From Mobula hypostoma (Eukaryota), in the NCBI RefSeq assembly GCF_963921235.1, contig NC_086097.1, positions 161,450,001 through 161,514,000 on the forward strand: a stretch of DNA of 64,000 nt. Direction: 5' to 3'. The notes beneath the pieces were generated by a model. It did no database searches. It was not told the DNA's origin and saw only the letters and a list, made by a program, of their open reading frames with translations. Numbering within the stretch: the stretch's first letter is position 1; each line of letters begins with the position of its first letter. The position numbers were made by a program, and so were the translations under genes. Positions 16,466-56,084 of this stretch are shown one piece after another.

Positions 16466-17980
16466 CCATAAGATATAGCAGCAGAATTAGGCCACTTGGC
16501 CTATTGCGTCTGCTCCGCCATTTCATCATGGCTGATCCAATTTTCCTTTCAGCCCAACCTCCTGTCTTCTCCCTGTATCCCTTCATGCCCCGACCAATCA
16601 AGAATCTATCAAACATAAAAAGAACTGGTCCCAACACAGACCCCTGTGGCACACCACTAGTCACCAGCAGCCAGTCAGAAAAGGCTCCCTTTATTCCCAC
16701 TGTTTGCGTCCTGCCTATCAACCACTGCTTTATACATCCTAGATTTATTCCTGTAATACCATGAGCTTGTAACTTTTTAAGCAGCCTCATGTGTGGCACG
16801 TTGTCAAAGGCCTTCTGAAAATCTAATTGCACATCATCAACCAGTTCTCCTTTGTTGATCCTGCTTGTTATTTCTTCAAAGAATTCCAACAGATTTGTCG
16901 AGCAAGATTTTCCCTTGATGAAACCATGCTGACTATGGTCTGTTTTATCATATGCCTCCGTTCCCTGAGACCTTATCCTTAATAATCGACTCCAACATTT
17001 TCCCAAACTCTGAGGTCAGACTAATTAGCCTATAGTTTGCAAACATGAGGAAATCTGCAGATGCTGGAATTTCAAGCCTATAGTTTCCATTATTCTGTCT
17101 CTCTCCATTCTTAAAGAGTGGGATGACATTTGCAGTTTTCCAGAACCATTCCTGAATCCAGTGATTCTTTAAAGATCATCACTAATGCCTCCACGATCTC
17201 TTCAGGTACTTCTTTCAGAACACTGGGATGTACACCATCTGGTTCCGGTGACTTAGCTACCTTCAGACCTTTCAGTTTCCCAAGAACCTTGTCTCTAGTT
17301 TTGTAACTTCACATATTTTGACCGCTGACACCTGGAACTTCCACCATACTGCTACTGTCTTCCACAGTGAAGAATAACACAAGATGCTTATTCAATTTGT
17401 CTGCCATTTCGTTGTCCCCATTACTACTTCTCCAGCATCGTTTTCCAGTGGTCCAATATCCACTCACCTCTCTTTTACACTTTATATATCTGAAGGAACT
17501 TTTGATATCCTCTTTAATATTATTGGCTAGCTTGCTTTTGTATTCCATCTTTACCTTAATGACTTTTTACTTGCCGCCTTTTGGTTTTGAAAAGCTTCCC
17601 AATCCTCTACCTTTCCACTTTATTTTTGCTCTATTATATTCCTTCCCTTTGGCTTTCATGTTGGCTTTGACTTCTCTTGTTAGCCATGTCATCTTTCCTT
17701 TAGAATACTTCTTCCTCTTTGGGATGTATATATCCCGTGTCTTCTGCATTGCTTCCAGAAATTCCAGCCATTGCTGCTCTGCCATCATCTCTGCCAGCAT
17801 TCTTTTCCAATCAGTTCTAATCAACTCCTCGTGCCTCTGTAATTCCCTTTACTCCACTGTAAAACTGATGCATCTGACTTTAGCTCCTTCTCAAATTTCA
17901 GAATGAATTCAATCATGTTATGATCACTTGCCCTTAAGGGTTCTTTTACCTTAAGCTCTCTAATCAACTCTGATTCCTTC
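16466..17980 (-). mobile_element. CR1 LINE ORF2 fragment with internal deletion
   Basis: SQHGFIKGKSCSTNLLEFFE, LDFQKAFD, GVPQGSVLGP; CR1 3' end at ~16466. Confidence 0.9.
17039..17074 (-). mobile_element. 36-bp Penelope-like tail-only insertion inside CR1
   Basis: GCAAACATGAGGAAATCTGCAGATGCTGGAATTTCA matches the terminal tail at 40058-40104; flanked by a perfect 12-bp TSD AGCCTATAGTTT (17027-17038 and 17075-17086). Confidence 0.85.
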
Positions 17981-18699
17981 TGTGCAAAAGCTTTACAATT
18001 TGTCTTTTATTGTCATTAAGTTGAATTGGGTTGGTCGTGATTTTGATTGAGTTTTTTTGCAATAACTATTTTTGGGTTGATGGGCGGCTTTCATGGTGAA
18101 CAAGGTAATCAGTGGTATTTGGTTGGGGCAGTATGGAGAAATAAAATGATATCTAGAACATGAAGAAACAAATGGTTAAATGTGTTTAAGTGTATTTGGA
18201 TATCAGAATGATACAGCACAACAACACATCCTCAGCCTACAAAATCTGTGCTAACCATCTATCACTCATATCTGCACCACCCCCATCATATTCTCCCCAT
18301 ATTCATATTTCTCAAGGGGCAAACTACAGTGGTTAATTCCCAACCCATAAGAGTTTTTGGGATGTGGGAGGAAAATGGGTTATCCAGAGGAAACCCAAGC
18401 AATCACAAGTACCTTGCCTCACCTTAGCAAGTACCAATTTATGTTCCTTTGGCAGAAATTCCTGTGATAAACACAGATAGAGAAGTGACATTTTGAAGTA
18501 ATTAAAAGCCAATTTGTAGGCAAGAATTGAAATTGTACTTTAAAACAAGGTAAGCTTATTTGGATCACTATACATGAAATTGAATGTGAATTTAAAAAAA
18601 TCTAAAATTGTAATGAAAATATTTCTATCCAAGCAGTCTATTGAATGGTTTGTTTCTACTTAAAGCACTACTTAAGAAGTTTCAACTGTCTTCTCACAG

Positions 18700-18888
18700 G
18701 TCTTCCAGAACAATACTACAGCCTCACCTGGTTTCTAAGCCCAATCCTGGGACTGATCTTCACTCCTCTGATAGGTTCTGCTAGTGACCGCTGCACTTTG
18801 AGTTGGGGCCGCCGCCGGCCCTTCATCTTAGCTCTTTGTATTGGAGTCCTCTTCGGAGTTGCCCTCTTCTTAAATGGCTCCCTCCTAG
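18700..18888 (+). CDS. SLC45A4: SLC45A4 coding exon (first one in window, 189 bp)
   Basis: TTCTCACAG|G...CTAG|GTAAAT. Encodes [46 protein letters not shown], the SLC45 family signature; phase-compatible with the next exon. Confidence 0.97.
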
Positions 18889-19929
18889 GTAAATAATGGA
18901 ATATTTTGCAGATATTTTCATTCATGTCTTGTAAGAGCAAGCAGATTATTCTGGATTTGTATGTGTTAGGCCACAATTTAAGCATACTAGTCACCAAGTT
19001 ACATGAAAGATGTGATTGCACTGCCATGTATGTTTCTCCAAAGAGTAATAACATAATAGAGCTGATTTAAGCCATGTTAAGCATGACTTGCCAACTAAGT
19101 CTGGTTCTCCCTTGTACAATTTGATTCTGCATTAAAGAATACAAATATTAGAGTCGGGATTTAGACAATCTGATTGAGAAGCAACAAGAGAAAGACTTGA
19201 GGAGTTATGGGCTCTACTTGGATTGCTGCTTAAAAGACAACTAGATTTTGCTACTGATATGAAAATGCATTGGTAGTTTGCATGGGAAGAGTTGTAGCAG
19301 ATAAATTTTAAATATAAAGTAATATATTCTGTTTCCTGTACCTTCCTGAAAATAAACTGGGGTATAAGAGCACAAACTTGCAAAATTACTGGTTTCAGCG
19401 AGGGAAGTAAAAAATGCTAACAGGGCATAAAGTGGATGGTATGGATTTAGTGGGCCAGAGGTTCTGTTTCCGTGCTGGATCTCCATGACTAAAAGGGAAA
19501 TGAGGAACATATGGTGTCAGAACATCATTATTACAAGTGGTTGAGGCAAATGGTTTGGATACATTACATTCTAAAGCAAGCTAGATGAGTACATGAGAAT
19601 AAATAAAATGAAGAGATATTGAAGTACTAAAATGAGGTAACTGGAAACGATGTTCCACGTAGCCTGTAAACATCACACATTAGTTGAGTAATTTGCTTCT
19701 ATGTTTCTATTCTATGCAAATACACAGGCTCTTTTTTTATAATTTGCTCTGATACTAAAAGTACTAAAAAGACCTGTATTTTCAAGTCCTTGTTGGCCTT
19801 TTTCAGACTGAGCAGCAAATGGAAAGTCCTTTTTTTAAAAAAAAAAGCTGATACAATAATTTTTCTCTAGGTTTTTATCTAAACAATTTTGCATATTTTC
19901 TTGCCTTAATTATTTTAGCTATGATTTCC

Positions 19930-20452
19930 TTGTTTATTTTTAGTTATTCCTGGTTAGCGCTTTCCACAACCAGTGATCATTACAGTAAATTGATGGCTTC
20001 TTCCCATGAAGCCAATTATGTATTCACTTAGCCAGCTCTTTCTAAATCCCATGCAATCTAACATTCCTGACTACCCTTCCATGTGGGACTTTGTCAAAGT
20101 CTATATAGACATTGTCCACTGCCTTGCCCTCATCAATCCTTTTGGTTATCTCTTCAAAAAAAAAAGTTAACAATTAAGTCATAATTTCCAACACACCAAG
20201 TATTGCTGACAATCCCTTATTAATCCTTGTCTATTCAAATGCTGGTAGATCACATCCCTAAATCCCCACCAGTAAATTACCCATCACTGATGTCAGTTTT
20301 CACCAGCCTTTAGTTTCCTGGCTTGTCTTTGCTGTCCTTCAATAATAGTAGAACATTTAGTGACATTCCAGTCTTCTGGAACTTCCCTGGCTGAAGATGA
20401 TGCAAATATCTGCAAAGCCACCACTATTCTTTCGTAGTTTTCCGCAATGTCT
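19930..20452 (-). mobile_element. Degenerate CR1 fragment
   Basis: Reverse complement of the KxFDKVPH region (ATGTGGGACTTTGTCAAAGT) and EVPEDWNVT. Confidence 0.65.
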
Positions 20453-20467
20453 AAGGATGCACTTAGA

Positions 20468-21124
20468 TACCATCTGGCAGCAGAGCAGGTCCCCAGTGAA
20501 AGTATCTTTAGGCAGGGGTGCTTCCCCTGTACATTGGGGACCTGGAGTGGAAGGGTGTTGCATCGGGCAGTACCGTGCAACAGATTCTTGAGCAGGTTCA
20601 CTGACACCTCATCCAGCTGTCCATTATGTGGGCAAGAGGAGTCAGTGTATGGAATGTTAGAGGTTGCAGCCGCTCTTTGAGTTTCTCAGGGTGCTGCTGC
20701 TGAGGTTCTGGCTGCACTTTAATCCCGCGCTTCTCTTGTACGGGCACCCAGTTCGGAAGGGGGTGGGGCGTGAGGAGGATCTCCTGGTGGGCTTGGTTCT
20801 GGACCTGGCCAAGATGGTCTAGGCGGTGGAAGGTGGAGGGTGCTGCCCGGGCTGGCTGGCTGCCTGCCTACCCCTTTTCCGAGGATATGTTCCTGCCCGG
20901 CTGTCCTTGGAGAGGGAGCACGCTATCGCAGCGGGCACATTTGGGGACTTCGGTGAGCAGTGGTTCCCCTCCCCCCCCCCGTAGTATTGACTGTTTTATA
21001 GACAGTAATAACCATATTTTAATTTGAGTATACATACTGTCTTGTAAATATTGATTGTCTGTGCCTTTGTGTATATTTGTTGTGTATATATATGTTGTAA
21101 ACTTTTATAGTTTTGTTTAAACAA
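20468..21124 (+). mobile_element. 5'-truncated Tx1-like (L1 superfamily) retrotransposon with 15-bp TSD
   Basis: RVLHRAVPCNRFLSRFTDTSSSCPLCGQEESV (Tx1-type ORF2 C-terminus); TSD AAGGATGCACTTAGA at 20453-20467 and 21125-21139. Confidence 0.85.
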
Positions 21125-21139
21125 AAGGATGCACTTAGA

Positions 21140-25489: not shown

Positions 25490-25760
25490 AGAAACCGAAA
25501 CTGCTGAAAGAACCCGGCAGGTTAGACAGCATCTATAGATGTCAATGTTTTGGATAGAGACCCTACTTCAAAATTGAAGGTGTAAAGAGGAGCCGGCCAG
25601 TGTAAAGGGGTGAAGCAGGAGCTGGCAGGCAATAAGTGACCCAGTCGAGGATGGATTGATGGGCAGATTGAGCTAGGTGGGGAAAGGAGGAGTGAAGATT
25701 GTGACAGAGGCTGGAAATTGATTAGTGGAGGCAAAGTGGACAAGTGTATTTGCTTTTGGA
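25490..25760 (-). mobile_element. Old Penelope-like pseudo-LTR fragment
   Basis: GAACCCGGCAGGTTAGACAGCATCTATAG...GTTTTGGATAGAGACCCT resembles the terminal region of the 40058-42290 element, followed by a purine-rich tract. Confidence 0.55.
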
Positions 25761-25820
25761 GTATACTACCATAATCTGCACTAAGTTGCTTTGGCATTTC
25801 TGCTTCCAATTTCTCCCTAG

Positions 25821-26911
25821 GTCTTGGTGGAGCTATTGGCTATATGCTTGGTGGTTTAGATTGGACACAAACCGCTTTGGGCCAGATCTTCAAATCACAA
25901 CAGCAAGTCCTCTTCTTCTTCGCTGCCATCATCTTTTCTGGGTCTGTTGCTTTGCATCTTTTCAGCATTGAAGAGGAGCAGTATAACCCCCAACAAGACC
26001 GTATTGATGAAGAAACAGATGCACGGGCTACGATTAGTGTGAATGATAGTCTCCCACCCCTCCCTCGGCTTGACCTGCCTTATGAAGAAGGACCTTGCAC
26101 TACTGCAGTCTTCCCTGATGAAACTTGCTCAGTACAAGATGGTAATCTCAACTTCCTGGATGTAAATATTGGACGGAGCCAAAGTGACTCTGTTTTGCAC
26201 ATGCCTGACGCAACTATAGAAATTGAATCAGAGTTATTTTTTTTGAGAGACATTGAACCTTCTGTTTTCCAGGACCATTGTGATAGCCTGCATCAATCTT
26301 CAACAAGCTTATCCAAAAGTAACAACCAGGAAATTACATTAAAGCTCAATCACATCTCTGGTTTGCTCAGGGAGCATGAATTTGAAGATGTTTTGAAAGA
26401 CGATCTTACAACATCCAAAGTGGCAAATGGGCCATCTGATGACTGCACTAATGATCATATTAACCATAATACCTTCAGGATTGGGATGAAACCATCAACA
26501 ACCAGCAGTTCCATGCGTAGGCGTAGGCATGTATTCTACAGGCAACCATCTCACACCTTTTCGTATTATGGCAAGGTGGGTTCACATCGTTACCGCTTTC
26601 GTCGTGCAAATGCCATTGTCCTGATCAAGTCTTCACGCAGCATGAATGACCTTTACGATCTGCAGAAAAAACAAAGGCAGCGTCAGAGACATAGGAACCA
26701 GAGTGGTGTGACCAATTCAAGCAGTGATACCGAAAGTGAGGAAGGAGAGTCGGAGACAACTGTTAAGCTTCTGTGGTTATCTATGCTGAAGATGCCAAAA
26801 GAGCTGATGAGACTCTGTGTATGTCACCTGGTAACTTGGTTTGCTGTGATTGGAGCTGCTGTATTCTATACAGACTTCATGGGGCAAGTTATCTATAGAG
26901 GTAACCCAAAA
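25821..26911 (+). CDS. SLC45A4: SLC45A4 large coding exon (1091 bp; TM segments plus long cytoplasmic loop)
   Basis: CTCCCTAG|GT...CCAAAA|GTAAGT. Open frame GLGGAIGYMLGGLDWTQT...LLWLSMLKMPKELMRLCVCHLVTWF...FYTDFMGQVIYRGNPK. Confidence 0.97.
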
Positions 26912-27579
26912 GTAAGTTTGTAAATTTAGCTCTTTTTCTTTTACAGTATTATTTATATTCTGCTGTGTTTAGTACCAAGCCACAAATCCTGTTTCCATGA
27001 AGAATCAGCTTTTGAAAGCACCTCACATTAACTGCTTCTATTTGTAGTCTTCAAATGTACTGTAAGGAGAGTAATTATACTTGGACCACCCTTGATAAAA
27101 CACCACATTTGTCTAGAATTTTAGCTTCAAGTGTAACAAAATATAGGTTACACTCTTTTCCTTCCATTTTCATGACTGGTGGATACTGTAAATCAAATAA
27201 ACTTCTGTCAGTTTAAAAATCGTGACACTTGGCATAAAATTCACATTGCTGAAAAACAGTGTATGTTATCAAGGGAAGATTAGGATTAAGAGCTGAGAAT
27301 CCTAGCAGTCTTGATATTAAAAGAAATTTCCTTTCTTTATGTTATTATTTAATTATAATTGTTATAATTATATAATCATTGAAACTCAGTGATTACAAAA
27401 TGGAAGGTGGCCTTCAGAGCCATAACACCAATACCAGCTCAAGCAGTAATAAACCTGCAGATTATTTCCATTTAGATGCTTATCCAGTGCTCTTCCTAGT
27501 CTACAGTTGAATTCCAGGTACTGTGATTCCTGGCACTGCATTCCGCACTTAAATGTGACATGAACAAATATGTTCTTAA

Positions 27580-28620: not shown

Positions 28621-28719
28621 ACCTTTAGAGAACTGTCTATAGAAAGCTGCAGCAACAAATGACAAATTGTTGGAGGGCGAGCCTCTGTTGGACTGTGTGT
28701 GGAGAGAGAAGACGGCCTA

Positions 28720-29135
28720 CTACTCACACACTTTGCCCACCTAGTTCTTTCTCCCCTCTAGTTCCACCTGCCCTTTATCTTTCTCTAATTTTTTTCCCAT
28801 GTCACTTATCAAATTCCCTCACTCGTAGCCTTTGTATCACTGCTCATCACTATCCAATCTCTCTACTTTCAACTTCTATTTCCTGTGCTTGGCCCCATCA
28901 CTTTTCTTTCATTGTCTTCTTTTGTCTATCACCTACCTGCCTCTGTCTGTCAGTTCCACCTCTCCCCTACTTGGATCCTCCTGCCCTATCATTCTTCACC
29001 CTTCCTTAATTCACCAATCCTGTCTCACCCATTCCCCTATATATTGGCCATCTTGCTTCCCTATTGTCAGTTTTGATGCATGGTCTCAATCCAAAAGTTT
29101 AACAGTTCTTCTGCCCACAGTTGCTGCTTGACGCA
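28720..29135 (+). mobile_element. Old Penelope-like 3' fragment (pyrimidine-rich)
   Basis: CT-rich tract ending in TTTGATGCATGGTCTCAATCCAAAAG...GCTGCTTGAC, a decayed version of the pseudo-LTR/hammerhead region. Confidence 0.45.
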
Positions 29136-30896
29136 TTTTCATTCCTCAAGTAGTTTGGAATTTTTGAATAGGAAGATAGCAGGTTATCAAAGTTAGAAGA
29201 GACTGAAGATGCTGGAAGATTTTGGTCAGTGTTTGGCATCTGGTTTACAGGCCCTGGTTCCCACACTCCCTTGAAATTCACCTGGTTTGCTGGCAAATTT
29301 ATAATACTGCATCAAATCTTAAAAACCTATGAAGCATGTTGGAGCATTAATGGAATAACATCCAATAGTTTAGAAAGCCTGTAATTTCAATCGTAACAAA
29401 GTCTTGAGAATACTAGATAAATAATCTTATTGTATCTTTCTCTAATATGAAAAATAACTATTCCCTACTACTCCATTTCCTGTAATATTCAATTTTCTGT
29501 CCATGCTGCATTTCACCTTATTCCCCATGATTTTCAGACTTCAACAACCTAGGGTACAGAGCAGCTGTCTAATCAATTTACACACCTAAAGTGCAAATAA
29601 CCTTCCTAATATTTTCATCATTTGTTAGGTCTTTGTTTAAGCTTTTGGCTGGCCTCTGTTTCCTGTGTTCCTGTCATTGCTTGCTTGCAATTCATATCTC
29701 ATCATGCTGGTTTCTTCCTTGTGGTCTCTGTGTATTTTCAACTAGTTAATTGGATATCCTTTTTGTTTATTTTGTTAAGGCATCTTATTTTAATTCAGTT
29801 AGATTTGTTAATGGACATGGTACAGAAAGCTACTTGCTTTTTATACGTGGAAATTTAAGCAATGTTTAGAAATAAAATACTATTCTGTATTTAGATTGTA
29901 TTTAAGGTTCTTGAGGCCAAAGTTCAGATTTCATAGATTCCCAGGCTGAAGTGGTATGGTTGTGCCTTCACTTGCATCACATTAAATTTGTTTTTGTAAC
30001 TGGTGACTAATCTTTCACCTTCTGCCACCCTAAATTTTGTTGCATAAAGAAAGTCAGAGCATGGAGTTGTCTTGACTTGAAAAAACAGGATGAAATGCAA
30101 ATGTGTGATGTGACCTTTTACTTTTAACAATATTCATATTTTTGTAACATCAACTAAATCAACTATAAAACAATTAATGGACATACTTTTTGCTGTGAAT
30201 GTAGATGATATAGTGTTTTTTTCATTCTATCCCAAAACAGCTTTGAACTGTTTTCCTAAAAAAGCAAAATTAATGTAACAACATGTTTTCATATCCTATC
30301 GTATTTGCCTTACTGCATCTTTACCTTTGTTGGAACAAACCTAATACTTATATTTCCTACATCTGAAATGAATTGCCTGGAATCACCTAATAGTCATAAT
30401 TTTCAACATTTTGTTAAACACGTTCCCTTCTGACCCCTTCTGTTTGGCCAGTTTCCTCCTATCTGACAAGCAAAACAAAGAGCTTGTATGCTAATTATTA
30501 AAATGCAGTGCTATCTTGTTGAGCATTTCTCACTTGCAGATTGACTTCTTCTATATCACTTAACATGCAGTGAATTAAGACTTGTATATAGCTTAGCATG
30601 CGGTGTATTCTTAAAGGTTATAGCTGAAAACCTGGATGAGAACTGCAAAGGGGAAAAAATTCCTTTTCTCCCCGCCCCCCCCCCCAACTCCACCTTCTTC
30701 CTCACTCTGGCCTCTTAAATTTTCCCACCTAATTTCAGTTTCAGGCATAAACCCAGCATTCCGTATCTTTTCTTCCATTCCTACCTAACCCTCATCCATA
30801 AACCACACCCAACCCCTCCGCCACTCTTCACATTAAAAGGGAATACAATGAATTATTAGTTGTGTTGATAGTGATTCCAATTATTTGTTTTTCCAG

Positions 30897-31518: not shown

Positions 31519-32540
31519 GTCAGATTTTTCTCCATTTTTATAAGTGAGTTAGATGCAGAATGAGAAAATCAGGGCTAAATGGATGAGTACTTCTCATGCC
31601 TATAATCTCTTGTAATTTATTTAAAGTGTCCTTGGTGGAGAATCGCGTACTCTTCCAATTAAGTGTATTGGATAAAATAAAACTCCCAGTAACCTGCTAT
31701 GCCATTGTTGGGAATCAACAATTGTATCATTTTTAATGTATGTATTTCTAAATGACAATGAACGAGGACTGAGTGTCCTCGGAATCTAATCCTGACGCTT
31801 TAGCACTTGGTTGCTGTTTCCCATGTTTAGATAGGCTCTCAGGTCCCTGTTCCATGCTCCAGTTTAAACTCATCTGGTTCACTGAAAGATTTGTATTATA
31901 TGCTGTATAAATTCTACAAAAATGAGAGTGTTTTGGTGCATTAATAGGACTAGAGTCAGATAAGCTGGTAAATCAAAGTCTAAGGGCTGCTGGATTATCA
32001 GAGTTTTACTGTATGTTGGACAATAAAGCTTGGGGTGTTTAAAGTAAATTGTATTTAAGCAAATTTGCTTTCTCAAAATTTATAAATTTAGTTTTGGTAT
32101 TATAATTGAAACACTGTTGCCAATGATGCAGTGATGCTCAGTAATATTGCTTCAGTGTTCATTCATAATAAGTTGCATAAATATTAATATAATGGACACA
32201 ATTCACAACTATTAGTTGAATGTGAAGATGTCTTTGAAGCTTGATAATGCACTCAGGAAGATGTGTGTAGTAATCGGAAGCACACAAAGTGGGCGTGTTC
32301 ATACTGTGTACAAATTCCCTTTCTTCCAGTTTGCTACTTATAGTTTGTAATACTGGCCTAAGTATTGTCAAAATTCTGGGGCTAAAATTTGTGGGGAAAG
32401 TAAATGATGTAGTTACTTTTCGGTAATGCCAGCTCTTTGAGCAAATATATTGTGCGTGGATTTTACTGTTGCAATATTGTCTCATTATAGGAACCAAAGT
32501 AGTAATTCTAAACTTCTATTTTTTTACCTTTTCCTGGCAG

Positions 32541-32752
32541 CTATTTTACAGAAGTACCTGGATACCTACGATTTGAGCATTAAAGTTATCTACATATTAG
32601 GAACACTTGGATTTTCAATTGGTACTGCAGTAATGGCTATTTTCCCAAATGTTTATGTATCAATGATAATGATCAGTACAATGGGAATAGTATCTCTGAG
32701 TATCTCGTACTGCCCTTACGCTCTTCTTGGACAATACCATGAAATGAAAACG
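32541..32752 (+). CDS. SLC45A4: SLC45A4 coding exon (212 bp)
   Basis: CCTGGCAG|CT...ACG|GTAAGC. Encodes ILQKYLDTYDLSIKVIYILGTLGFSIGTAVMAIFPNVYV...SYCPYALLGQYHEMKT. Confidence 0.97.
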
Positions 32753-33718
32753 GTAAGCAGCTTTTCCTTTTGCTGTTGCTATTTTAAAATTGTAGTGCTT
32801 GGCCAAAATTGTTACTAAAATGACACCAGACAAAAGATGAAATACAAAAAATTATTTCCAAGGAGAAAAATAGTCCCATGTACTAGTTGTGTGAATTACA
32901 TATTTCAGTCAGAGGCACAAGAGTGCAGGTGATGAAATCTAGAGCAACAATCAATCTGCTGAAGGCATTCAGCATGTTGAACAGCATCAATAGAGAGAAA
33001 GGCGTTATCCACATTTTGGTCAAAACTTTGACGATTTCTTTCCGTCCACTGATACTACTCGACCAGCTGAGTTTCTGCAGCAGCTTAGCAAATCGTTGTG
33101 TGTATCCCAAATGACTGTGCTGTGTGTAATGGACTGTAGTTATCCATTGAAGTGTACCAACGCAAATTCGGATTAGAATTGTTAAAGTTAGAATTCAAAT
33201 GAACCACTTAAGGTAAACCGGTCATTGTGTCATCATTTGTAAATGTGTAATATTCCACTAATCTAGAATTCAGAGATTTGAGTTACCATTTAACCTTGTC
33301 AGATATCAAGATTTAGTTAATCTCCTGCAATAAACAAACTGTTGGAGGAACTAAGCAGGTCAAGCAGCATCTGTGGAGGCAAAGGGATTTTGTGCCTGAT
33401 ATTAAGGAGCAGGCAATCAGTGACCACCACAGTTTGGGGTAGGGGGGTACAACTTCCCTGCATTCCTTTAAAACAGCCCATGTCACAACTTTCAGTAATG
33501 TGAAAACTGCATCATGTGTGCGTGCATCAAGAAACTTAAAAAGACGTTGATTTCTTTAGCTTTTTTCACATCAATTCCATTGGAGCAAATGTTATTTTGT
33601 AAATCAATTTTCTGGGTAGTGATTTGTGCATTCTGTGAGGGCAAATTCATGTAACCATGGTTGTAACACATGCCACCTGTAAATTTATACAAAGTAATCA
33701 AATGTTTTGTTTTTACAG

Positions 33719-34078
33719 TATAGAAATCACAGTCCTGGAAACTCCAAGAGGGGCTTTGGAATAGACTGTGCAATCCTCTCCTGTCAAGTTTATATTTCCC
33801 AGATACTGGCAGCATCAGCACTGGGTAGTGTGGTGAAAGCAGTTGGTTCAGTTCGAGTCATCCCTGTTGTGGCATCCATTGGTTCATTCCTTGGCTTTCT
33901 ATCTGCCTCATTTCTCGTGATATATCCTGGAAGTCAAGAAGACCCAGTAGAGGAAGGAAATAAAGAAACTTTAATGGCATCTTCAGTAAACAGTGGGAGA
34001 AGTACAGAGAAGCCGATTGTTTTGAAGTTGACTAGTAAAGGCACCATCTCTGAAGTGGAGATTGAATCGTCTGTTTAA
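33719..34078 (+). CDS. SLC45A4: SLC45A4 last coding exon
   Basis: TTTTACAG|TAT. Encodes YRNHSPGNSKRGFGIDCAILSCQVYISQIL...EKPIVLKLT...IESSV, stop TAA 34076-34078. Confidence 0.97.
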   Translation, partial: YRNHSPGNSKRGFGIDCAILSCQVYISQILAASALGSVVKAVGSVRVIPVVASIGSFLGFLSASFLVIYPGSQEDPVEEGNKETLMASSVNSGRSTEKPIVLKLTSKGTISEVEIESSV

Positions 34079-38125: not shown

Positions 38126-38304
38126 CCTGATGACTGATTCTTTAAGCACTATATATTGTAAAGAATTAGGGAACTGACAAAATTTACAGTGAATATATTT
38201 TTTTAATGATGCTGCTGTGTAAGTCTACCTGATGAGTGGTTCTTTAAGTACTATATATTGTAAAGAATTAGGGAACTGACGCTGCTGTGTAAGTCTACCC
38301 GATG
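38126..38304. repeat. Short imperfect local duplication
   Basis: TTCTTTAAG(C/T)ACTATATATTGTAAAGAATTAGGGAACTGAC occurs twice and GCTGCTGTGTAAGTCTACC occurs twice, interleaved. Confidence 0.85.
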
Positions 38305-40164
38305 TGCAAATGTGTAGAATAGGATGACCTGTGTTTTGATTAAAATGAAGATATAACACTGCAGATGCTGGAACCTAGAGCAAAAAAAAAGTTGCTGGTA
38401 TGGTCTGCGGCTGTGGAGGAAAATAAGCAGTGGATATTTCAGGTCAAGGCCCTTCGCTGGCCTGAAAGGATGAAGAAAAGATGGTCAATATATAAAGGTG
38501 AGGGGAAGGGATGGGACAAAAGACAGCCAGAATGTGGAGATGAGCAGAGGGAAGAGTAGGACAAGGGACAAGGGATAGAGGCTGGGTGGTGATGAATGGA
38601 GGCAACAGGGAATCGGATAAGGATTTCCTAGATAAAGGAACATCCCAAATGTCCTGGAGTGGAAGATATCCTTTAGAGAACAAGCACTGCAAAGATAGAG
38701 AAAATGAAAGAAATGAATGGTGTCCTTAAAGGAGATGCTGGGAGTTGGGTTTGCAATAATTCTTTTTTGATAGGTGTCAGTGCTAATTAAGGTTTTTAAA
38801 ATTATCCATGGGTCTGGTGAACATTGAAGTGCTTCTAAAGTCTCCAACTCCTTCGTGGCAAAGGGACAAAACTGGTCTTAAAATCTAATCAATCAAATTC
38901 TTGCAAAAGAACATTATAGTGCACTTCCTTGCATCCATATGGATTCCTGCAATATTATTTAGGTTCCCATGTTAAAGAAAATTGGAGCTCTCTGCAGTAT
39001 CCTTGTTAACATTTACCTCTCCAAACAACCTGCTTCACTATAATATTGAAAATTAGCTGCAGTATTTCCTAACTTCATGTACAAAATAAATTTTGAAGAA
39101 CCATGGTTGTGAAAGGGTTCAAAGTACTTTCAAGTAGTTTGCAGTCATTCATCAGACAGAAGAAAAGATTTTGGAAGAAGGGACAAACTACAGTATATTG
39201 CATTGCTGGAAAGAGCCACACAGTCTCAGTGAATTCTACTGAAATGTGGGGGTGGAAGAGATAAACTATCAATAAAATTCATCAGAAACTATTATTCTTG
39301 TTTGATAAGTTAGTATCAGGACCACAATGGTAATTGCATAGCAGAAATAAAACAATTGCATAACTAGAAATAACATGGTGGATGATGTGCTAGGTGGTGG
39401 GGGCCATTTGAGACCAATAGTCGATCAGAATCCTTTTAGTAACTGGTCTTCAAGTTCTAAACTGCGGGAAGGCAAATTTCATCACTGAATCAAGGCTGAA
39501 AGAAAATTATAGCTGGAAATTTAACGTCCAAACATGCACATTCTGTTGAAAGCACGGGCAGAAGCTGGTTGCTGTTGGTAAAAAATGAAATGAACTCATT
39601 AGTAAAAGCTGACATAGGGCCATAAGGTGTTGAATCATTGTGGATAGAGCTAAGGAACTGCAAGGGTAAAAAGACCTTGATGGAAGTTGTAAAGACACCC
39701 CTGAACAGTAGTAAGGATGTGGTCTACGAATTACAATGTGAGATATAAAATGCATTTCAAAAGGGCAATGTTACAAGTCATACGGGATTTCAATATGCAG
39801 ATAGATTCCAGGAAGGGCAATTCCTAGAGTGGGTATAAGATGGATTTTTAGAGCAGCTCATGGTTGAGCCCACGAGGGGACCAGCTATTCTGGAATGGGT
39901 GTTGTGCACTGAACCACAATTGATTAGAGAGCTTAAGATAAAAGAACCCTCAGGGATGTGATCATAATATGATCAAATTCACCTTGAAATTTAAGAAGGA
40001 GAAGCTAAAGTCAGTATTACAGTGGAGTAAAGGGAATTACAGATACTTAAGAGAAGATTTTAAACTCAAACAACAGGAATTCTGCAGATGCTGGAAATTC
40101 AAGCAACATACATCAAAGTTGCAGGTGAACGCAGCAGGCCAAGCAGCATCTATAGGAAGAGGCG

Positions 40165-40202
40165 CAGTCGACGTTTCAGGCCGAGACCCTTCGTCAGGAC
40201 TA
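40165..40202 (-). ncRNA. Minimal type I hammerhead ribozyme motif (left arm)
   Basis: Reverse complement reads TAGTC-CTGACGA-AGG GTCTCGG CCT-GAAAC-GTC-GACTG: intact CUGANGA and GAAA core, helices I and II, palindromic ACGT helix III. Confidence 0.85.
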
Positions 40203-42193
40203 ACTGAAGGAAGAGTGAGTAAGGGATTTGAAAGCTGGAGGGGGAGGGGGAGATGCAAAATGATAGGAGAAGACAGGAGGGGGAGGGATAGAGCCGAGAG
40301 CTGGACAGGTGATAGGCAAAAGGGGATACGAGAGGATCATGGGACAGGAGGCCTAGGGAGAAAGATGGGGGGGGGTGACCCAGAGGATGGGCAAGAGGTA
40401 TATTTAGAGGGACAGGGAGAAAAAGGAGAGTGAGAGAAAGAATGTGTGCATAAAAATGAGTAACAGCTGGGGTACGAGGGGGAGGTGGGGCCTAGCGGAA
40501 GTTAGAGAAGTCAATGTTCATGCCATCAGGTTGGAGGCTACCCAGACGGAATATAAGGTGTTGTTCCTCCAACCTGAGTGTGGCTTCATCTTTACAGTAG
40601 AGGAGGCCGTGGATAGACATGTCAGAATGGGAATGGGATGTGGAATTAAAATGTGTGGCCACTGGGAGATCCTGCTTTCTCTGGCGGACAGAGCGTAGAT
40701 GTTCAGCAAAGCGGTCTCCCAGTCTGCGTCGGGTCTCACCAATATATAAAAGGCCACATCGGGAGCACCGGACGCAGTATATCACCCCAGTCGACTCACA
40801 GGTGAAGTGATGCCTCACCTGGAAGGACTGTTTGGGGCCCTGAATGGTGGTAAGGGAGGAAGTGTAAGGGCATGTGTAGCACTTGTTCCGCTTACACGGA
40901 TAAGTGCCAGGAGGGAGATCAGTGGGGAGGGATGGGGGGGACGAATGGACAAGGGAGTTGTGTAGGGAGCGATCCCTGCGGAATGCAGAGAGAGGGGGGA
41001 GGGAAAGATGTGCTTAGTGGTGGGATCCCGTTGGAGGTGGCGGAAGTTACGGAGAATAATATGTTGGACCCGGAGGCTGGTGGGGTGGTAGGTGAGGACC
41101 AGGGAACGCTATTCCTAGTGGGGTGGTGGGAGGATGGAGTGAGAGCAGATGTACGTGAAATGGGGGAGATGCGTTTAAGAGCAGAGTTGATAGTGGTCCA
41201 CTATCAACTCTGCTCTTAAACGCATCTCCTCCATTTCACGTACATCTGCTCTCACTCCATCCTCCCACCACCCCACTAGGAATAGGGTTCCCCTGGTCCT
41301 CACCTACCACCCCACCAGCCTCCGGGTCCAACATATTATTCTCCGTAACTTCCGCCACCTCCAACGGGATCCCACCACTAAGCACATCTTTCCCTCCCCC
41401 CTCTCTCTGCATTCCGCAGGGATCGCTCCCTACACAACTCCCTTGTCCATTCGTCCCCCCCATCCCTCCCCACTGATCTCCCTCCTGGCACTTATCCGTG
41501 TAAGCGGAACAAGTGCTACACATGCCCTTACACTTCCTCCCTTACCACCATTCAGGGCCCCAAACAGTCCTTCCAGGTGAGGCATCACTTCACCTGTGAG
41601 TCGACTGGGGTGATATACTGCGTCCGGTGCTCCCGATGTGGCCTTTTATATATTGGTGAGACCCGACGCAGACTGGGAGACCGCTTTGCTGAACATCTAC
41701 GCTCTGTCCGCCAGAGAAAGCAGGATCTCCCAGTGGCCACACATTTTAATTCCACATCCCATTCCCATTCTGACATGTCTATCCACGGCCTCCTCTACTG
41801 TAAAGATGAAGCCACACTCAGGTTGGAGGAACAACACCTTATATTCCGTCTGGGTAGCCTCCAACCTGATGGCATGAACATTGACTTCTCTAACTTCCGC
41901 TAGGCCCCACCTCCCCCTCGTACCCCAGCTGTTACTCATTTTTATGCATACATTCTTTCTCTCACTCTCCTTTTTCTCCCTGTCCCTCTAAATATACCTC
42001 TTGCCCATCCTCTGGGTCACCCCCCCCCCGTCTTTCTCCCTAGGCCTCCTGTCCCATGATCCTCTCGTATCCCCTTTTGCCTATCACCTGTCCAGCTCTC
42101 GGCTCTATCCCTCCCCCTCCTGTCTTCTCCTATCATTTTGCATCTCCCCCTCCCCCTCCAGCTTTCAAATCCCTTACTCACTCTTCCTTCAGT

Positions 42194-42231
42194 TAGTCCT
42201 GACGAAGGGTCTCGGCCTGAAACGTCGACTG
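42194..42231 (+). ncRNA. Minimal type I hammerhead ribozyme motif (right arm)
   Basis: TAGTC / CTGACGA (42199-42205) / AGG..CCT helix II / GAAAC (42219-42223) / GTC triplet with predicted cut after 42226 / GACTG pairing with TAGTC. Confidence 0.87.
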
Positions 42232-43129
42232 CGCCTCTTCCTATAGATGCTGCTTGGCCTGCTGCGTTCACCAGCAACTTTGATGTATGTTACTTAAGAG
42301 AAGAGTTGGCCAAAATTGATTGGAAAAGAACAGGGATGACACAGAGCAGCAATGGCTTCTAAATGGAGGGAAAATGCCAATAATGGAAGCGCAATGGGAC
42401 TTCGGAGCCCTTGTGCAGGGCTCCCTAAAGGTTAATTTACAGGTCAAGTCTGTGGTGAGGAAGGCAAATGCAATGTTAGCATTCATTTGAAGAGGACCAG
42501 AATATAAAAACGAAGATGTAACGTTGAGACTTTATAAAGCAGTGGTGAGGCCCTACTTGGAGTATTGTGAGCAGTTTTAGGACCCTTATCTTAGAAAGGA
42601 TATGCTAAAACTGGTAAGGGTTCAAAGGAGGTTCACGAAAATGATTCCAGGAGTAAACAGTTCGTCATATGAAGAGTGTTCCATGGCTCCGGGCCTGTAT
42701 TCACTGGAATTCAGAAGAATGAGGGGTGACCTCATTGAAACGAATTGAATGGTGAAAGGCCTTGATAGAGTGGACGTGGAGACGATGTTTCCTAAGGTAG
42801 GGGAATCTAAGACCAGAGGATGCAGCCTCAGAATAGAGATGAGGAAAAGTTTCTTTAGCCAGAGAGTAGTGAACCTGCAGAATTCTTTACCACAGGCAGG
42901 TGTAGAGGCCAAGTCTTTATGCCTATTTAAGGCAGAGGTTGATAGATCCTTGATTGGTCAGGACATGAAGGGACAGGAGAAGAAGACAGGAGATTAGGGC
43001 TAAGAGGAAAATTGAATAGCCATAATAAAATAGCAGAGCAGACTCAATGGGCCAAATGGCCTAATTCTGCTCCTATATCTTATGGTCTTGCAGTTCCTTG
43101 TGCAAGTGACATTCCTCACTTGCAAATCT

Positions 43130-45510: not shown

Positions 45511-45552
45511 TACAAAGAAACAGTGCAACTGCTCCCCCTAGTGGAAAGGTTA

Positions 45553-46143
45553 GAAGAGAAAGCAGGATCTCCCAGTTACCACACATTTTAGTTTCATGTC
45601 CCATTCCCATTCTGATATGTCTATCCACGGCCTCCTCTACTGTAAAGATGAAGCCACACTCAGGTTGGAGGAACAACACCTTATATTCTGACTGGGTAGC
45701 CTCCAACCTGATGGCATGAATATTGATTTCTCAAACTTCCACTAATGCCCCACCTCCCCCTCGTACCCCATCCGTTATTTATTTATATACACACATTCTT
45801 TTTCTTTTTTTCTCTCTCTCTCTCCTTTTTCTCCCTCTGTCCCTCTCACTGTACCCCTTGCCCATCCTCTGGGGTTCCCCCCCTCTTCCTTTTCTTTCTC
45901 CCTAGGCCTCCTGTCCCATGATCTTCTCATATCCCTTTTGCCAATCACCTGTCCAGCTCTTGGCTCCATCCCTCCCCCACCTGTCTTCTCCTATCATTTT
46001 GGATCTCCCCCTCCCCGACCTACTTTCAAATCTCTTACTAGCTCTTCCTTCAGTTAGTCCTGACAAGGGCTCTCGGCCCGAAACATCCACTGTACCTCTT
46101 CCTAGAGATGCTGCCTGGCCTGCTGTGTTCACCAGCAACTTTT
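45553..46143 (+). mobile_element. 5'-truncated Penelope-like copy with degenerate hammerhead
   Basis: Colinear with 41712-42280; the hammerhead region 46055-46092 is mutated (CTGACAAGGG...GAAACATCCACTG). Confidence 0.9.
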
Positions 46144-46270
46144 AAATGTTTAAAGTTGCAAGGTTGAGGTGCAGTCCTATGGATCCTGAAAGTCACATTT
46201 CACTAAGAACTTTTCTTGAAATGTTCAGCATTTCTCTTTAACCTCTGTATTTCCAGCATATGTCTTGTTT

Positions 46271-46340: not shown

Positions 46341-46349
46341 AACTCACGG

Positions 46350-50275: not shown

Positions 50276-50779
50276 CTGAAAGAATATTTAAAAATAGTAT
50301 CAGCCAACCACAGTCTTTCAAATACATATAAACTTTGCCACTTGAAAATAATGTTTAAATTCTACCCTGGGTTTCCTTTGAGTGCTCTGGTTTTCTTTCC
50401 CATCCTAAACATGTGCTGGCTATTGTAAATGACTCCTTGGTTTAGGTTCATGGTAGGAAGAATCATATGGAATTTGAAGGGTGGGATGGGATACAGGCTG
50501 TGTGTTGTGGGACCATATGGGGAGGGGATGATAGGCTCATAGAAACAGGCAGGAGAAGGGATGGGAAAGGGGAAATGAAGGAAGAGGAAAATTAGGTGGC
50601 AAAATGAGTGTGTGTGTAAGAGCAGAATACCACAGGTTGTGGGTTACCTAAAATAGGAAAATTGAATGTTCAAACTTTGCTGCAGTTTCCAACATCCGCA
50701 GTCTCCTGATTCCATAAGGAAATGGAAGGTCAATGATCATTCTTGTGTTTTGATTAAATGGAGAGCCATTTCTTGAAAC

Positions 50780-51270: not shown

Positions 51271-51377
51271 GTTATTTCAGAAAACCCATAGTATTTACAA
51301 ATTGCCAAGCATATGCTGCTTGCTGAATTTAAGGGTAAATGAATTCACCCTAGCAAATCAATTTAATCAAAAGGTTT

Positions 51378-51591
51378 TAAAACGCAAACGACAGGAATTC
51401 TGCAGATGCTGGAAATTCAAGCAACACACATCAAAGTTGCTGGTGAACGCAGCAGGCCAGGCAGCATCTCTAGGAAGAGGTACAGTTGACGTTTCAGGCC
51501 GAGACCCTTCTCTCGGCCTGAAATATCGACTGTACCTCTTCCTAGAGATGCTGCCTGGCCCACTGTGTTCACCAGCAACTTTGATGTGTGT
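51378..51591. mobile_element. Mini fold-back Penelope-like insertion (81-bp arms, 6-nt loop)
   Basis: Arms 51424-51504 and 51511-51591 with an extra tail on the left; TSD AATCAAAAGGTTT at 51365-51377 and 51598-51610 (extends to ~20 bp with 2 mismatches). Confidence 0.92.
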
Positions 51592-51978
51592 CAGTTGAAT
51601 CAAAAGGTTTAGTTACTTTGCTGATACAAACGACTCATTGGGAGACTCTGCTAAAATCACGTCAACCAGCTGAGAAAAAAAACAGCACCAATATGACGTA
51701 GAAGATATTTACAATATATGGAGTTACTTACTAGCAAGACATAGAGGATTTCAGACCAAGTGCTGATAAATGGGATTAGTATATGTGGGAAAATAACAGT
51801 AAGTGAGGAAAGTGAGCCAGAGGGCCTGTTGCTGGGCTGAACGATTCTAGGATTATAAGAAGTTGAAGAACAGTGCTGTGATTGTTAATGCGAACCTGTT
51901 CATCACCTCCTTAGAGAATAAAGCTTTATACTGTACATTTGAATTAGTAAATATTTGACATTTAAGCCATGATATTAC

Positions 51979-52116
51979 CTGCTTTTTAACAAATATCATG
52001 CAATTAACACTGCTACAATCTTGAAGCTGAATCTTTTGCCAGGGTTTTAACAGATTTTCCATATCCCAAAAATAAACTTCTCCTTTATCAGCACATCCAG
52101 CCACGAGTTGATTTTT
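51979..52116 (-). CDS. DENND3: DENND3 penultimate coding exon (138 bp)
   Basis: TTTTTAG|AAA...CAG|GTAATA, phase 0-0: KNQLVAGCADKGEVYFWDMENLLKPWQKIQLQDCSSVNCMIFVKKQ; splices in frame to the 50275 exon. Confidence 0.92.
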
Positions 52117-53153
52117 CTAAAAAGACATGAAAAGATATCTGAGACAATGATATAACTTCTGCTTATTAAGTCACTAATTCAAAAGAAGACTGTGCTACCA
52201 ACCCTAAAGCTGAATCATGTGTTTACATGCATCACTTCCCAACAAGCTGACTGGCTGATTAAATGAAGTACTTTTCTCATGAATTCATTAGTTATTGCAA
52301 ATACCTTACATTGTTTAGTACTTTTTAATGAAAAGTTTAACCTCACTGGCAGTGCTTTCTTGAAAGCCAGTATTATTTGCAGTCAGCCCCTACTTTACAG
52401 GTAGGTGTGGCTGCATTCCTAGAAAATGGTCCGCATTCCGATTTTCTGCAGTTCATCAAGAAATGCAAGTTGAAAAATTTGTTTCAATTTATTTATTTTT
52501 TTCCACATACATTTCCTAAGAGCAAATTTTTATTCTATATCCCAGACTTTTTGGTAATAACAGGTAAAATCCGTAAGGGAAATATTCCATCATCCCAGCT
52601 GTTGTAATGCTGGGATTGCCCATAGATTTTTCTTACGTTATCAAATACTGATTTCTAATGATTCATGGAATATTCATCCATGTGCAAATTACTTTATAAA
52701 GGCAAATCACAGAGGAAAAATTAAGAAAATAGCTACCAGACTGATAGAAAAGATAATTAGAAGCAAAGACAAAGTTTGGTCAATGAATTGAGCTTTAAGA
52801 AATATTTGATGCCAGAGTAGTGGGTTTAAGAAGAGAATAAAAGAATGTGGAATTACATAGTTGAAGGGATACTTCCATCGAATAAGAGAATCTGGGCCAA
52901 AAATCAGAGAATTTGGGTTCATGCTTGCAGGAGCTTCATGCAAGAATATGGGAATAAACCAGTATTTCCCAAAATGGACATTATTGCCAGCCTGGGGGCA
53001 GTGGGAACAATAAAGATAACGGAACAGTAGGGAGGTGCATGGAAGCAAGGGGGGCAGCTGAGGGATTATATTTGTAATTTTAAAAATGAATTACTTCTTA
53101 CAAGCATTTGCTTCTCAGTGCCTCATAATTAATTACAATGATCATGTAATCAC

Positions 53154-53506
53154 TGTAGGAGCTATATATCTATTTTCCGTCTGTCTGTATTGTATTTTGT
53201 GTTGCATGCTCCATTATGGGTCACAGTAATTTGTCACATGGGTCAGGGTGAGGTAGAAGCAAATAAGTATAGCTACATATTCCTTTGTCCTAGTTAGATA
53301 GTTTAGTTTGGTTAGAGGAAGCCAAAGACAAGGACGATAGATTTTGTTGACTACTTAATTATGCTAATTTGAATACTAATTACTCTTATTCCACTATATC
53401 ACTAATTTAATTTCATTAATTTCTAATATCGATATAAAATCATTCAACTTTGCTGGTTTCATATTAAAGTACTAATGAGGCACTATGAACCTATGTCACA
53501 TCCAAC
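53154..53506 (+). mobile_element. Possible 5' LTR of the BEL/Pao element
   Basis: TGT...ACA bounded segment directly upstream of the gag remnants; no second LTR in the window to confirm it. Confidence 0.25.
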
Positions 53507-54465
53507 AGGTCAAAGAGCTCATGGGGACATTCACTTACAACCTGGATACATGCTTTTTTCAGATGATAGAGGTCAATACAGTATTATTGATATGATGTGG
53601 AAGCAAAATGAAATTATAACCTTATTGGCATAACAACAATGCCTGAAAAAGCAATGCAAATCTTCAATGGTGATCCATGCAGTATCATGGATCCATGAAG
53701 GTTTTCGAAAACAGTGTTGAAGGCAAGACACACAGCCATAGTGACTGCCTCTATTTCCTTGAACAGTACACTAGGGGTCACTCTATAGAACTTGTCAGAG
53801 GTTGCCAGCATGTTGACCCCAAAGAAAGATGTGCAAAAGCTAAAGCTTTACGACAGGAATGTTTTGGTAACAAACATAAAATTGCATCCATCTACATGTA
53901 AAAAACTCTTTCTTAGGTACCTATCAAATTTGAAGACAGGAAAGGTCTTCAAGACCACAGTTTTTTTCTTCGAGGCTATTGCAATGCCATGGAAGATGTG
54001 CCATACATGTGTGAGCTGGACATGCCTGCCAATATGTCAATGTCATAAAAAAATTTGCCTATATGGAATAAATGGAGAACAGTGGTCTATAATCTGTAAG
54101 AAAGGCATAACCTTAAGGCTACTTTCACTGACATTGTTGATTTTATTGAAAAGCATGTAGGGATTGCTACACCTGGTATTTGGGAATATACAGAATGTTA
54201 AATCACCTGCAATAAGCAAAGGTGTGAACGAAACCAAGTCACAACTTTGTTCTAAGGCTAACTGAAGCAGTTTTCCCACTACTGACGCCACAATGAGAAG
54301 TAAAATTAAAACTGAACCTGGAAGAAATGGAAGGGAAATGATCTTGTCAGCCAAAGGGGTTTGGCTGATCTGCGAGGTGAAACACACATTGGATTTGTGC
54401 ATTCAGCTGGAGAAAAGGGCTCACAGTGAGAAGATGGTCTTCCTAAAGGAAAATGGTGTCTGCTT

Positions 54466-55583
54466 TCACAAACAGAAGAAAATCTGCACGATTGAAATCC
54501 AAGCAACACACTCAAAATGCTGAGGGAACTCAGCAGGCCAGGCAGCATCTATGGAAAAGAGTCAACAATCGATGTTTCAGGCCCAGACCCTTCATCAGGA
54601 CTGGAAAGGAGGAGGAGAAGTCAGAGTAAGGAGGAGGGCAGGGGAGGAAGAAGTAAAAGATGGTAGGAGATAGGTGGAACCAAGAGAGAGGGAAGGGTGA
54701 AGTAAAGAGTGGGAAGTTGATTGGTGAAAGAGATAAAGGGCTGGAGAAGGGGGGAATGTGATAGGTGAGAACAGCAGACCATGGAAGAAAGGGAAGGAGA
54801 AAGAACATCAGAGGGAGGTGATGGGCAGGTAAGGATATGAGGTGAGAGAAGGGAACAGAAATAGGGAATGCTGAAGGAAGGAGGGTGGGACAATTACCAG
54901 AAGTTAGAGAAACCACTGTCCATGCCATCAAGTTGGAGGCCACCCAGATGGAATACAAGGTAACACACACAAAATGCCAGAGGAACTGAGCAGGTCAGGC
55001 AACATCTACGGAAAAAAGTACAGCCAATATTTTGAGCCGAGACCCTGCAGCAGGTCTGTAGAAAAAAAAGATGAGGAGTAGAACATAAGGTGTTGCTCCT
55101 CCAACCTGAGCATGGCTTCATCATGGCAGTAAAGGAAGCCATTGATTGACATGTCGGAATGGGAATGGGAGGTACTGATGGCATGAACATTGATTTCTCG
55201 AACATCCAGTAACTGCCCCCCTCTTCCTGTTTCCCTCTCTCACCTTACACCTTTACCTGCCCATCACCTCCCTTTGGGGTTCTTCCTCCTTCCCTTTCTT
55301 CCATGGTCTTCTATCTTCTTCCATCAGATTCTCCCCTTCTGCAGCCCTTTATCTCTTTCACCCATCAACTTTCCACTTTACTTCACCCCTTTCCCCTCTC
55401 CCACTTTCACCTATCACCTACCACCTTGTACTTCTTCCACCCCTCCTCCCATCTCCTTACTCTAATTTCTCCTCTTTTTTTCAGTCCTGACAAAGGGTTT
55501 CAGCCCAAAACATCGACTGTTTACTCTTTTCCAGCAATGCTGCCTGGCCTGCTGAGTTCCTCCAGCATTTGCATGTGTTGCTT
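54466..55583. mobile_element. Older fold-back Penelope-like insertion in BEL gag
   Basis: Minus-strand arm ~54466-55170 and plus-strand arm ~55175-55583; 12-bp TSD TGGTGTCTGCTT (54454-54465 and 55584-55595); hammerhead remnants at 54566-54603 (-) and 55482-55519 (+); extra nested pseudo-LTR piece ~54962-55080. Confidence 0.88.
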
Positions 55584-56084
55584 TGGTGTCTGCTTGACTG
55601 TCGGCAAGGATAACGGGAAGCAACTTTCATGAAAGGTTTGCAGTGGCAAGCATACCAGCACACTTCACATTCACTCTAACAAAAAGGGTGTAGAATCAAA
55701 ACAAGCCGTGAAAGAATCAGACAAAACAGTTATTAGTGCCTTGGTATCCAGAGGCCTTACAGGGGCTGATGATCATGACGGTAAACTTCCCATAATTCCA
55801 GTATGTTTAAGAAGGGTAATAAAACAATGGTTACTTATGCTTTCCAAGATCAAGGTAGTACAGCAGTTTTCTGCACAGTGGGCCTCATGAACAACCAGCT
55901 CAACCTCACCCGAAAAAGGACACACATTCTCTTATGTACCATTGATCAAAAGAAGGTAATGAGAAACTGTAATATTTCAGGACTGGAAGTCGCTGGCTTA
56001 GCTGATGAAAACTATTGTGAACTACCTAACATCTATACACAAGACAGTATGCCGGTCCATGGAGGGAACATTCAACATCAGAGG

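Follow-up and report, generated by a model that had tools for sequence, protein, structure and literature searches.

Four separate insertions of a Penelope-like element (PLE) lie in a 64,000-nt stretch of the Mobula hypostoma genome (NCBI RefSeq assembly GCF_963921235.1, contig NC_086097.1, positions 161,450,001 to 161,514,000 of the forward strand), hereafter the window, in whose own coordinates all positions are given. Each of them (A to D) is flanked by an exact target site duplication (TSD) of 12-14 bp; A consists of the terminal tail only, and B, C and D are pairs of truncated copies in mirror orientation that carry this tail on one side. The mirror-arm layout, the fixed boundary at which the tail-less arm ends and the TSD length are already known or unremarkable for PLEs. 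The mechanistic lead comes from two details of an otherwise ordinary anatomy, namely the loop-less centre of B and the tail-only insert A. How PLE integration is finished and how mirror arms originate are still open questions (PMC11167929, PMC8557442), and we consider it an even call whether the inserts arose by convergent priming from both target ends, with the two cDNAs joined head to head. If true, a young and huge family in a ray would allow the second half of PLE integration, still unsolved, to be tested across a whole genome.

Four insertions and their target site duplications

The insertions comprise the following parts (LINE, long interspersed nuclear element; pLTR, pseudo-long terminal repeat; UTR, untranslated region; TSDs are exact repeats).

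17027..17038, plus strand: left TSD of A, 12 bp, in a CR1 LINE (exact-repeat test, empty-site paralogues)
17039..17074, minus strand: tail-only insert A, ending at the pLTR/tail border with 3 nt common to the TSD
17075..17086, plus strand: right TSD of A
40044..40057, plus strand: left TSD of B, 14 bp, in a CR1 LINE (empty sites)
40058..40106, minus strand: one-sided tail of B, 49 nt, element 3' end
40107..41196, minus strand: tail-bearing arm of B, with the C-terminal GIY-YIG part, 3' UTR and hammerhead motif
41197..42290, plus strand: tail-less arm of B, its first base being the central T
42291..42304, plus strand: right TSD of B
51365..51377, plus strand: left TSD of C, 13 bp, matching at 18/20 positions when extended to 51358
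51378..51510, minus strand: tail and tail-bearing arm of C, truncated within hammerhead helix II, 93% identical to B
51511..51597, plus strand: tail-less arm of C
51598..51610, plus strand: right TSD of C
54454..54465, plus strand: left TSD of D, 12 bp
54466..55173, minus strand: tail and tail-bearing arm of D, an older subfamily, 76% identical to B
54962..55080, minus strand: nested tail-less PLE end in the left arm of D, with a decayed duplication of 11-12 nt
55175..55583, plus strand: tail-less arm of D
55584..55595, plus strand: right TSD of D

Between the exact TSDs the inserts measure 36 bp (A), 2233 bp (B), 220 bp (C) and 1118 bp (D). The original prediction, drawn from the sequence, had placed four TSD-flanked insertions at these sites, where exact repeats and, for A and B, empty sites are indeed found, and its sizes of 36 bp, ~1.1 kb and ~2.2 kb are borne out; its ~214 bp for C becomes 220 bp, or 213 bp if the imperfect 18/20 repeat starting at 51358 and 51591 is taken as the TSD. 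Exact repeats of at least 12 nt occurred in 16 of 20,000 random 41x41-nt window pairs drawn at the observed spacings, and thus the repeats lie well above chance. Exactly 48 nt (36 + 12) are absent at the A site from two CR1 paralogues within the window, and the 14-nt target of B is present once in one such paralogue. Moreover, contigs of 4 of the 24 listed runs were aligned to 39700-41196 (the left arm of B and its flank), and the B site is crossed without the element by 275 contigs in run X1 and by 246 in run X5. TSDs far above chance together with the CR1 empty sites identify the repeats as true target duplications, and A to D are four real, separate insertions.

The four are the best-preserved subset and not the rule in the window, where most other PLE copies have no mirror-arm, tail and TSD layout. 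Seven other copies or copy pairs had a best exact flanking repeat of 8 bp, which is within the null (the matches at 25498 and 33319 were left out of this search). The "graded series" of the original prediction is therefore a selection, which moreover spans at least two subfamilies. The TSD ends in TT in three of the four insertions, B being the exception, and these are too few cases to speak for T-rich priming at the tail end. Relative to the common CR1 sequence, the B target (40044-40057) has other letters at 5 of its 14 positions, apparently more than the flanks do, and both TSD copies carry these differences.

The same tail opens all four inserts, as had been predicted, in a diverged form in D (76-85% identical to the tails of A, B and C); A, B and C belong to one family (87-93% identical). 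From the start of the tail to the end of the tail-less arm the distance is 49 nt in B, 40 or 47 nt in C and 35 nt in D, and all three arm ends fall within 40100-40107 on the scale of B. The near-fixed end point of the second arm thus stands, and its predicted range of 40-47 nt widens to 35-49 nt. Of the three inserts described as fold-backs, B and C have near-equal arms; D does not conform, with arms that are 83% identical, an asymmetry of ~110 nt at the centre and a nested copy of ~120 nt.

The arms of B are 99.3% identical over 1098 columns, and both carry one frameshift and all subfamily letters. At the centre they are offset by 1 nt, the tail-less arm being the longer one, with a single unpaired T (41197) and with neither loop nor microhomology. 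On the tail-less arm this T fits a Ser codon as its first base, FPSSTINSAL being the reading of three close relatives, and the tail arm, if continued at the centre, would require A rather than T. Long near-perfect palindromes are usually unstable in vertebrate genomes, and B, a palindrome with 1.1-kb arms and a 1-nt centre, may therefore be very young or polymorphic. In C the centre has a spacer of 6 nt, derived from the tail arm, together with an overlap of 2 nt, and lies within hammerhead helix II, past the predicted cut site. A spacer of ~230 nt separates the arms of D, whose tail arm reaches ~110 nt deeper into the open reading frame (ORF), and no overlap was seen at the centre of this old copy. 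The nested end in D sits at a site resembling the element's own tail border, and a similar junction occurs in an X9 contig with a depth of 274, which may point to a composite subfamily in many copies or to a hotspot of self-insertion.

Identity, abundance and other copies of the element

Four further features bear on the identity of the element and on its other copies in the window (RT, reverse transcriptase; EN, endonuclease).

41200..41903, plus strand: truncated, frameshifted ORF end in B, with the RT-EN linker C-x4-C-x2-C and the GIY-YIG endonuclease (P0002, P0001)
42199..42227, plus strand: minimal hammerhead motif of B (pattern scan, fold), with its mirror counterpart on the minus strand at 40197
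45555..46150, plus strand: E, a solitary member of the B family (90% identical) that has neither tail nor inverted partner and for which no TSD was found
32913..33086, no strand assigned: G, a mini-palindrome, older and decayed, that belongs to a related family and has the tail on its left arm and no exact TSD longer than 8 bp

Judged by their sequence, A to D are 5'-truncated copies of a PLE with a GIY-YIG endonuclease, a Cys linker and a minimal hammerhead motif, and the Penelope-like identity proposed originally holds up. The protein from the right arm of B matches GIY-YIG in Pfam (E 5.8e-05, above the cut-off), and its alignment with relatives contains the CCHH residues, with a Cys pair lying between GIY and YIG and a pair of His further on. 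The closest of 21 protein matches are RT-EN proteins of M. hypostoma (93%) and Hypanus sabinus (83%), matches that fit a myliobatiform ray as the host. RT lies upstream of the endonuclease in one ORF in the 93% relative (P0003) and in relatives of 740-1100 aa with RVT_1, not in the truncated window copies; a second protein search gave 85 proteins of at least 740 residues, most of them with RVT_1. No relative was found in PDB at E<0.3.

The linker C-x4-C-x2-C occurs in P0001 and its relatives. A CX2-5CxxC linker between RT and EN marks Neptune, and Nematis has a linker too (PMC8557442). In a FastTree phylogeny of 94 of the 108 stored proteins, from which the two fragments of the window and 12 rows of chimeric or partial proteins were left out and in which no row bears a clade name, the seven rows named as shark or ray proteins fall within a 76-row clade with the Cys linker in 72 of its 76 rows, and 12 linker-less rows form a separate clade. 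As to the choice between Neptune and Poseidon raised by the original prediction, the element would be of the Neptune type by the Cys-linker criterion, in a tree without a named Neptune reference. The Penelope/Poseidon clade, for which no Cys linker is expected upstream of the endonuclease, was rejected as its affiliation.

The pattern scan for the putative hammerhead matched three times within the window, always in B or D; the hammerhead region had no match in Rfam at the gathering score. Downstream of the B stop codon a pyrimidine-rich 3' UTR is followed by the minimal hammerhead motif, and from this order of ORF end, 3' UTR and hammerhead it follows that the tail is the 3' end of the element and that the inserts are head-to-head mirror pairs. 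No full partial-tandem pLTR-ORF-pLTR unit was found within the window. One frame is open through the tail of C, a part expected to encode the ORF start in PLEs with an endonuclease, and no protein matched it.

The element family is very abundant, with 211,514 X1 contigs aligning to 39700-41196 (1.5 kb of element plus flank). At 40163, 40235 and 40296, non-B letters make up 60-67% of the summed depth in X1 (organism A) versus 98-99.7% in X5 (organism B), and because these proportions differ, a recent expansion of the B subfamily in one species is suggested, with the proviso that summed contig depth is not copy number. A ~12-fold drop of summed contig depth left of the tail end and, among the matches listed, 15 X9 contigs that run out of the element at 40063 into dissimilar flanks both fit a common tail end. 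A profile of element ends, built from 11 stretches of the same window, found 26 matches in the window; seven of the 18 at E<0.1 start at the tail end, nine at the border and two elsewhere, and element ends in the window are thus bimodal.

Where the border sequence would usually stand, the end of E is formed by a short, imperfect hairpin with arms of ~11 bp (46133-46158), which may be due to chance. Older decayed PLE ends of related families lie at 32913-33086, 10407-10533, 28640-29161, 25498-25700, 33319-33381, 38343-38620 and 50677-50708. Two or three of them resemble old mini-palindromes, one resembles an opposite-strand tail-only piece, and no TSD was recovered for those tested. Local duplications of 25-40 nt lie at 38150-38305, just left of the end at 38343. 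The tail pattern had no match in viral_contigs, and its two matches in metagenome_contigs were dismissed as chance, being located in prokaryotic-looking coding DNA; the hammerhead-region pattern had no match in genome_contigs and viral_contigs.

The neighbouring sequence holds exon-like ORFs of a membrane transporter gene (25775-26923, 32441-32818 and 33698-34078, plus strand), presumably SLC45A4 by resemblance, with A upstream of the first and B, C and D downstream of the last. A stretch with long open frames that covers RT and the C-terminal region of ORF2 (674-2390, plus strand) belongs to an element that we take to be L1/Tx1-like, and PIF1-type helicase fragments (8250-10190, plus strand) are presumably Helitron-like.

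Proposed convergent priming and its alternatives

In convergent priming, a dimer of the RT-endonuclease would prime one cDNA from each target end, at two fixed sites of the RNA. A staggered cut would leave 3' overhangs of 12-14 nt, and one target end would prime at a distal site and produce the tail-bearing arm, the other at a proximal site and produce the tail-less arm. The two cDNAs would have one RNA as their template and extend to its broken 5' end or close to it, yielding near-equal arms as in B (1 nt) and C (6 nt), or unequal arms as in D if one of them stopped early, and a template jump or end joining would link the two. Use of a single site would give lone tail-less copies such as E and the nested copy in D, and a distal cDNA that stopped at the proximal site would leave a tail-only insert such as A. 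Here, the cut and the TSD are seen in the sequence, the two RT starts are borrowed from a Poseidon element, and we infer the shared template and the joining. Convergent priming accounts for A to D through published activities, and we hold it to be as probably right as wrong. A more specific version falls somewhat short of this balance: in it, a dimeric RT-endonuclease would copy one RNA twice from two sites that bracket the tail and join the cDNAs without a hairpin, the loop-less centre of B and insert A being its fingerprints.

On the other hand, a single tail-primed cDNA might snap back, copy itself, stop at the protein-covered tail and join the second target end, which we regard as possible and clearly less probable than convergent priming. 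For steric reasons, a tail-primed cDNA cannot form a hairpin with a loop of fewer than 3 nt, and the tail arm would have to supply these bases; given that the centre of B has no loop and that its odd base belongs to the tail-less arm, snap-back of B would need untemplated bases. Arm ends differing by only 1 and 6 nt in B and C, the frameshift and all subfamily letters common to both B arms, and the tail-arm spacer and overlap at the centre of C all speak for snap-back, and inverted-junction palindromes have been interpreted as self-priming before (PMC3846280). However, the loop of B would be 1 nt, with an odd base that fits the tail-less arm, and the old copy D has an offset of ~110 nt with no overlap seen. 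Likewise, the fixed boundary needs no fold-back, because lone tail-less ends start at the same border and a second RT start site has been published (PMC11167929). The fold-back of one tail-primed cDNA in the original prediction thus fits C and is at odds with the centre of B and the offset in D. It seems unlikely that a palindrome formed first, by self-priming on antisense or read-through RNA or from hairpin-capped DNA, and that an endonuclease cut of this intermediate left the tail on one side. PMC8557442 does ascribe the tail to EN-mediated resolution of an intermediate, PMC3846280 argues for an antisense template, and a sealed DNA end would yield a loop-less centre as in B; yet later in vitro work puts the tail between two RT start sites on sense RNA (PMC11167929), and the offset in D and the lone arms would need extra steps.

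Other readings concern the short copies or the data themselves. C and G resemble hairpins of 200 bp that carry TSDs or traces of TSDs, but it is very improbable that they are true MITEs (miniature inverted-repeat transposable elements) moved as units by a DNA transposase, given that the ends are asymmetric with a tail on one side only, that TSD length varies (12, 13 and 14 bp), that the arms are pieces of an RT-EN element and that the centres differ among window copies. The term "MITE-like" used in the original prediction applies to shape only, nothing indicating that the short copies move as units, and annotation calls for caution, as 200-bp hairpins here are retroelement stumps and not MITEs. 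Insert A might be the 36-bp footprint of a former palindromic insert that lost both arms through a deletion between short direct repeats located where the stem begins, a reading that we entertain tentatively. Long perfect palindromes are deletion-prone, and A ends at the border where the palindromes begin, with 3 nt common to the TSD there; against this, 3-nt overlaps are usual at 5'-truncation joints too, the 12-bp TSD is fully intact, and no allele or orthologue that retains the arms was seen, though no search aimed at one could be made. Chance repeats or assembly fold-back artefacts have next to no probability. Sequencing artefacts can have the shape of B, a palindrome of 1.1 kb that is nearly perfect, and no aligned contig spans it, the alignment reference being the left arm only; however, on either side of B unique CR1 sequence runs on in register next to the 14-bp duplication, the B arms differ at several positions, and exact repeats are rare in the null.

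Several points weigh against convergent priming. Only three centres (B, C and D) were examined, and the tally of element ends leans on a profile made from those same ends. C, with its 6-nt spacer, 2-nt overlap and longer tail arm, fits snap-back equally well, B would fit it given two untemplated bases, near-equal arms are the exact prediction of snap-back, and A could be a deletion footprint. The in vitro data come from Poseidon, not Neptune, and later steps are called unvalidated there (PMC11167929). Two polymerases on one RNA would require strand displacement. Finally, pairing between the target and the RNA border gave p values of 0.15-0.56 (exact) and 0.05-0.79 (with wobble) in a fixed test over five junction readings. 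Pairing of the second target end with the element at the pLTR/tail border, which post hoc had reached 7/7 in B with G-T wobble (p ~0.015) and 9/11 in C (p ~0.046), was thus dropped as not above chance in the fixed test; a reversed-wobble control on B gave p 0.10. A special RNA fold at the border was not significant either (z-scores of -0.2 to -1.5 versus shuffles). Centre spacers, the identity of the longer arm and counts of tail-only inserts across the genome would separate convergent priming from snap-back.

Comparison with known systems

Crocodilian Chompy elements are PLE-derived hairpins, for which the literature search gave only a table entry. Like MITEs, they resemble the window copies as short hairpin-shaped inserts with TSDs, whereas the copies described here have asymmetric ends, variable centres and a retroelement origin. 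No discussion of tail-only inserts or loop-less centres was found in the literature searched, outside which lay most subscription papers, Repbase reports and supplements, and the passages of PMC2997562, PMC9977147 and bioRxiv 10.64898/2026.07.22.740005 contain nothing on PLE junctions.

The original prediction put forward that priming takes place at the tail, that 5' truncation varies and that the second arm has a fixed boundary; all three are supported, but they are published PLE anatomy (PMC3846280, PMC8557442, PMC11167929). A close match is Penelope in the rotifer Adineta vaga, where one pLTR is inverted and shorter, only one of the inverted pLTRs bears a tail (31 bp), the inverted junction holds palindromes and the TSDs measure 8-10 bp (PMC3846280). 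The window inserts share with it the inverted truncated arm, the one-sided tail, the TSDs and the palindromic inverted junction, and differ in their TSD length of 12-14 bp and in abundance, copy number being very low in A. vaga; tail-only inserts go unmentioned in those passages. The typical PLE layout likewise includes a tail of 30-40 bp, often at one end only (PMC8557442), compared with 35-49 nt for the one-sided tails of B, C and D, and Penelope of D. virilis has inverted repeats of variable size (PMC2377424). PLEs including Neptune, Naiad and D. virilis Penelope thus have in common with the window copies 5' truncation, an adjacent inverted truncated copy and a one-end tail (PMC8557442, PMC2377424, PMC8969392), whereas the window inserts are too truncated to contain the partial tandem or RT.

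The minimal hammerheads of metazoan PLEs (PMC4209133) are matched in the core boxes, in an almost absent helix III and in the palindromic junction; unlike them, the window motif scores below the Rfam gathering threshold and is known here as a sequence pattern. In vitro, the protein of the anole Poseidon element PAc cuts and extends both target strands as a predicted dimer and uses uncleaved RNA as template, with RT starting at two sites that bracket the tail (PMC11167929). Common to PAc and the ray element are a hammerhead in the pLTR, with the tail ~100-150 nt downstream of it between the two starts, and apparently the uncleaved template, as C crosses the predicted cut site. By contrast, PAc belongs to Poseidon, a clade without the Cys linker, and inverted products and second-strand steps are not addressed in those passages of PMC11167929.

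L1 twin priming, in which both target ends prime on the RNA, leaves TSDs of 12-18 bp (PMC11702581). Set against this range and the 8-10 bp of rotifer PLEs, the 12-14 bp found here, called long in the original prediction, are unremarkable. Priming of both target ends on RNA, as proposed here, and discrete TSDs would be common to the two systems. In L1, however, the product is an inversion with an overlap or gap of 1-10 bp, whereas in the ray element the whole arm is mirrored, which would follow because both starts lie near the RNA's 3' end.

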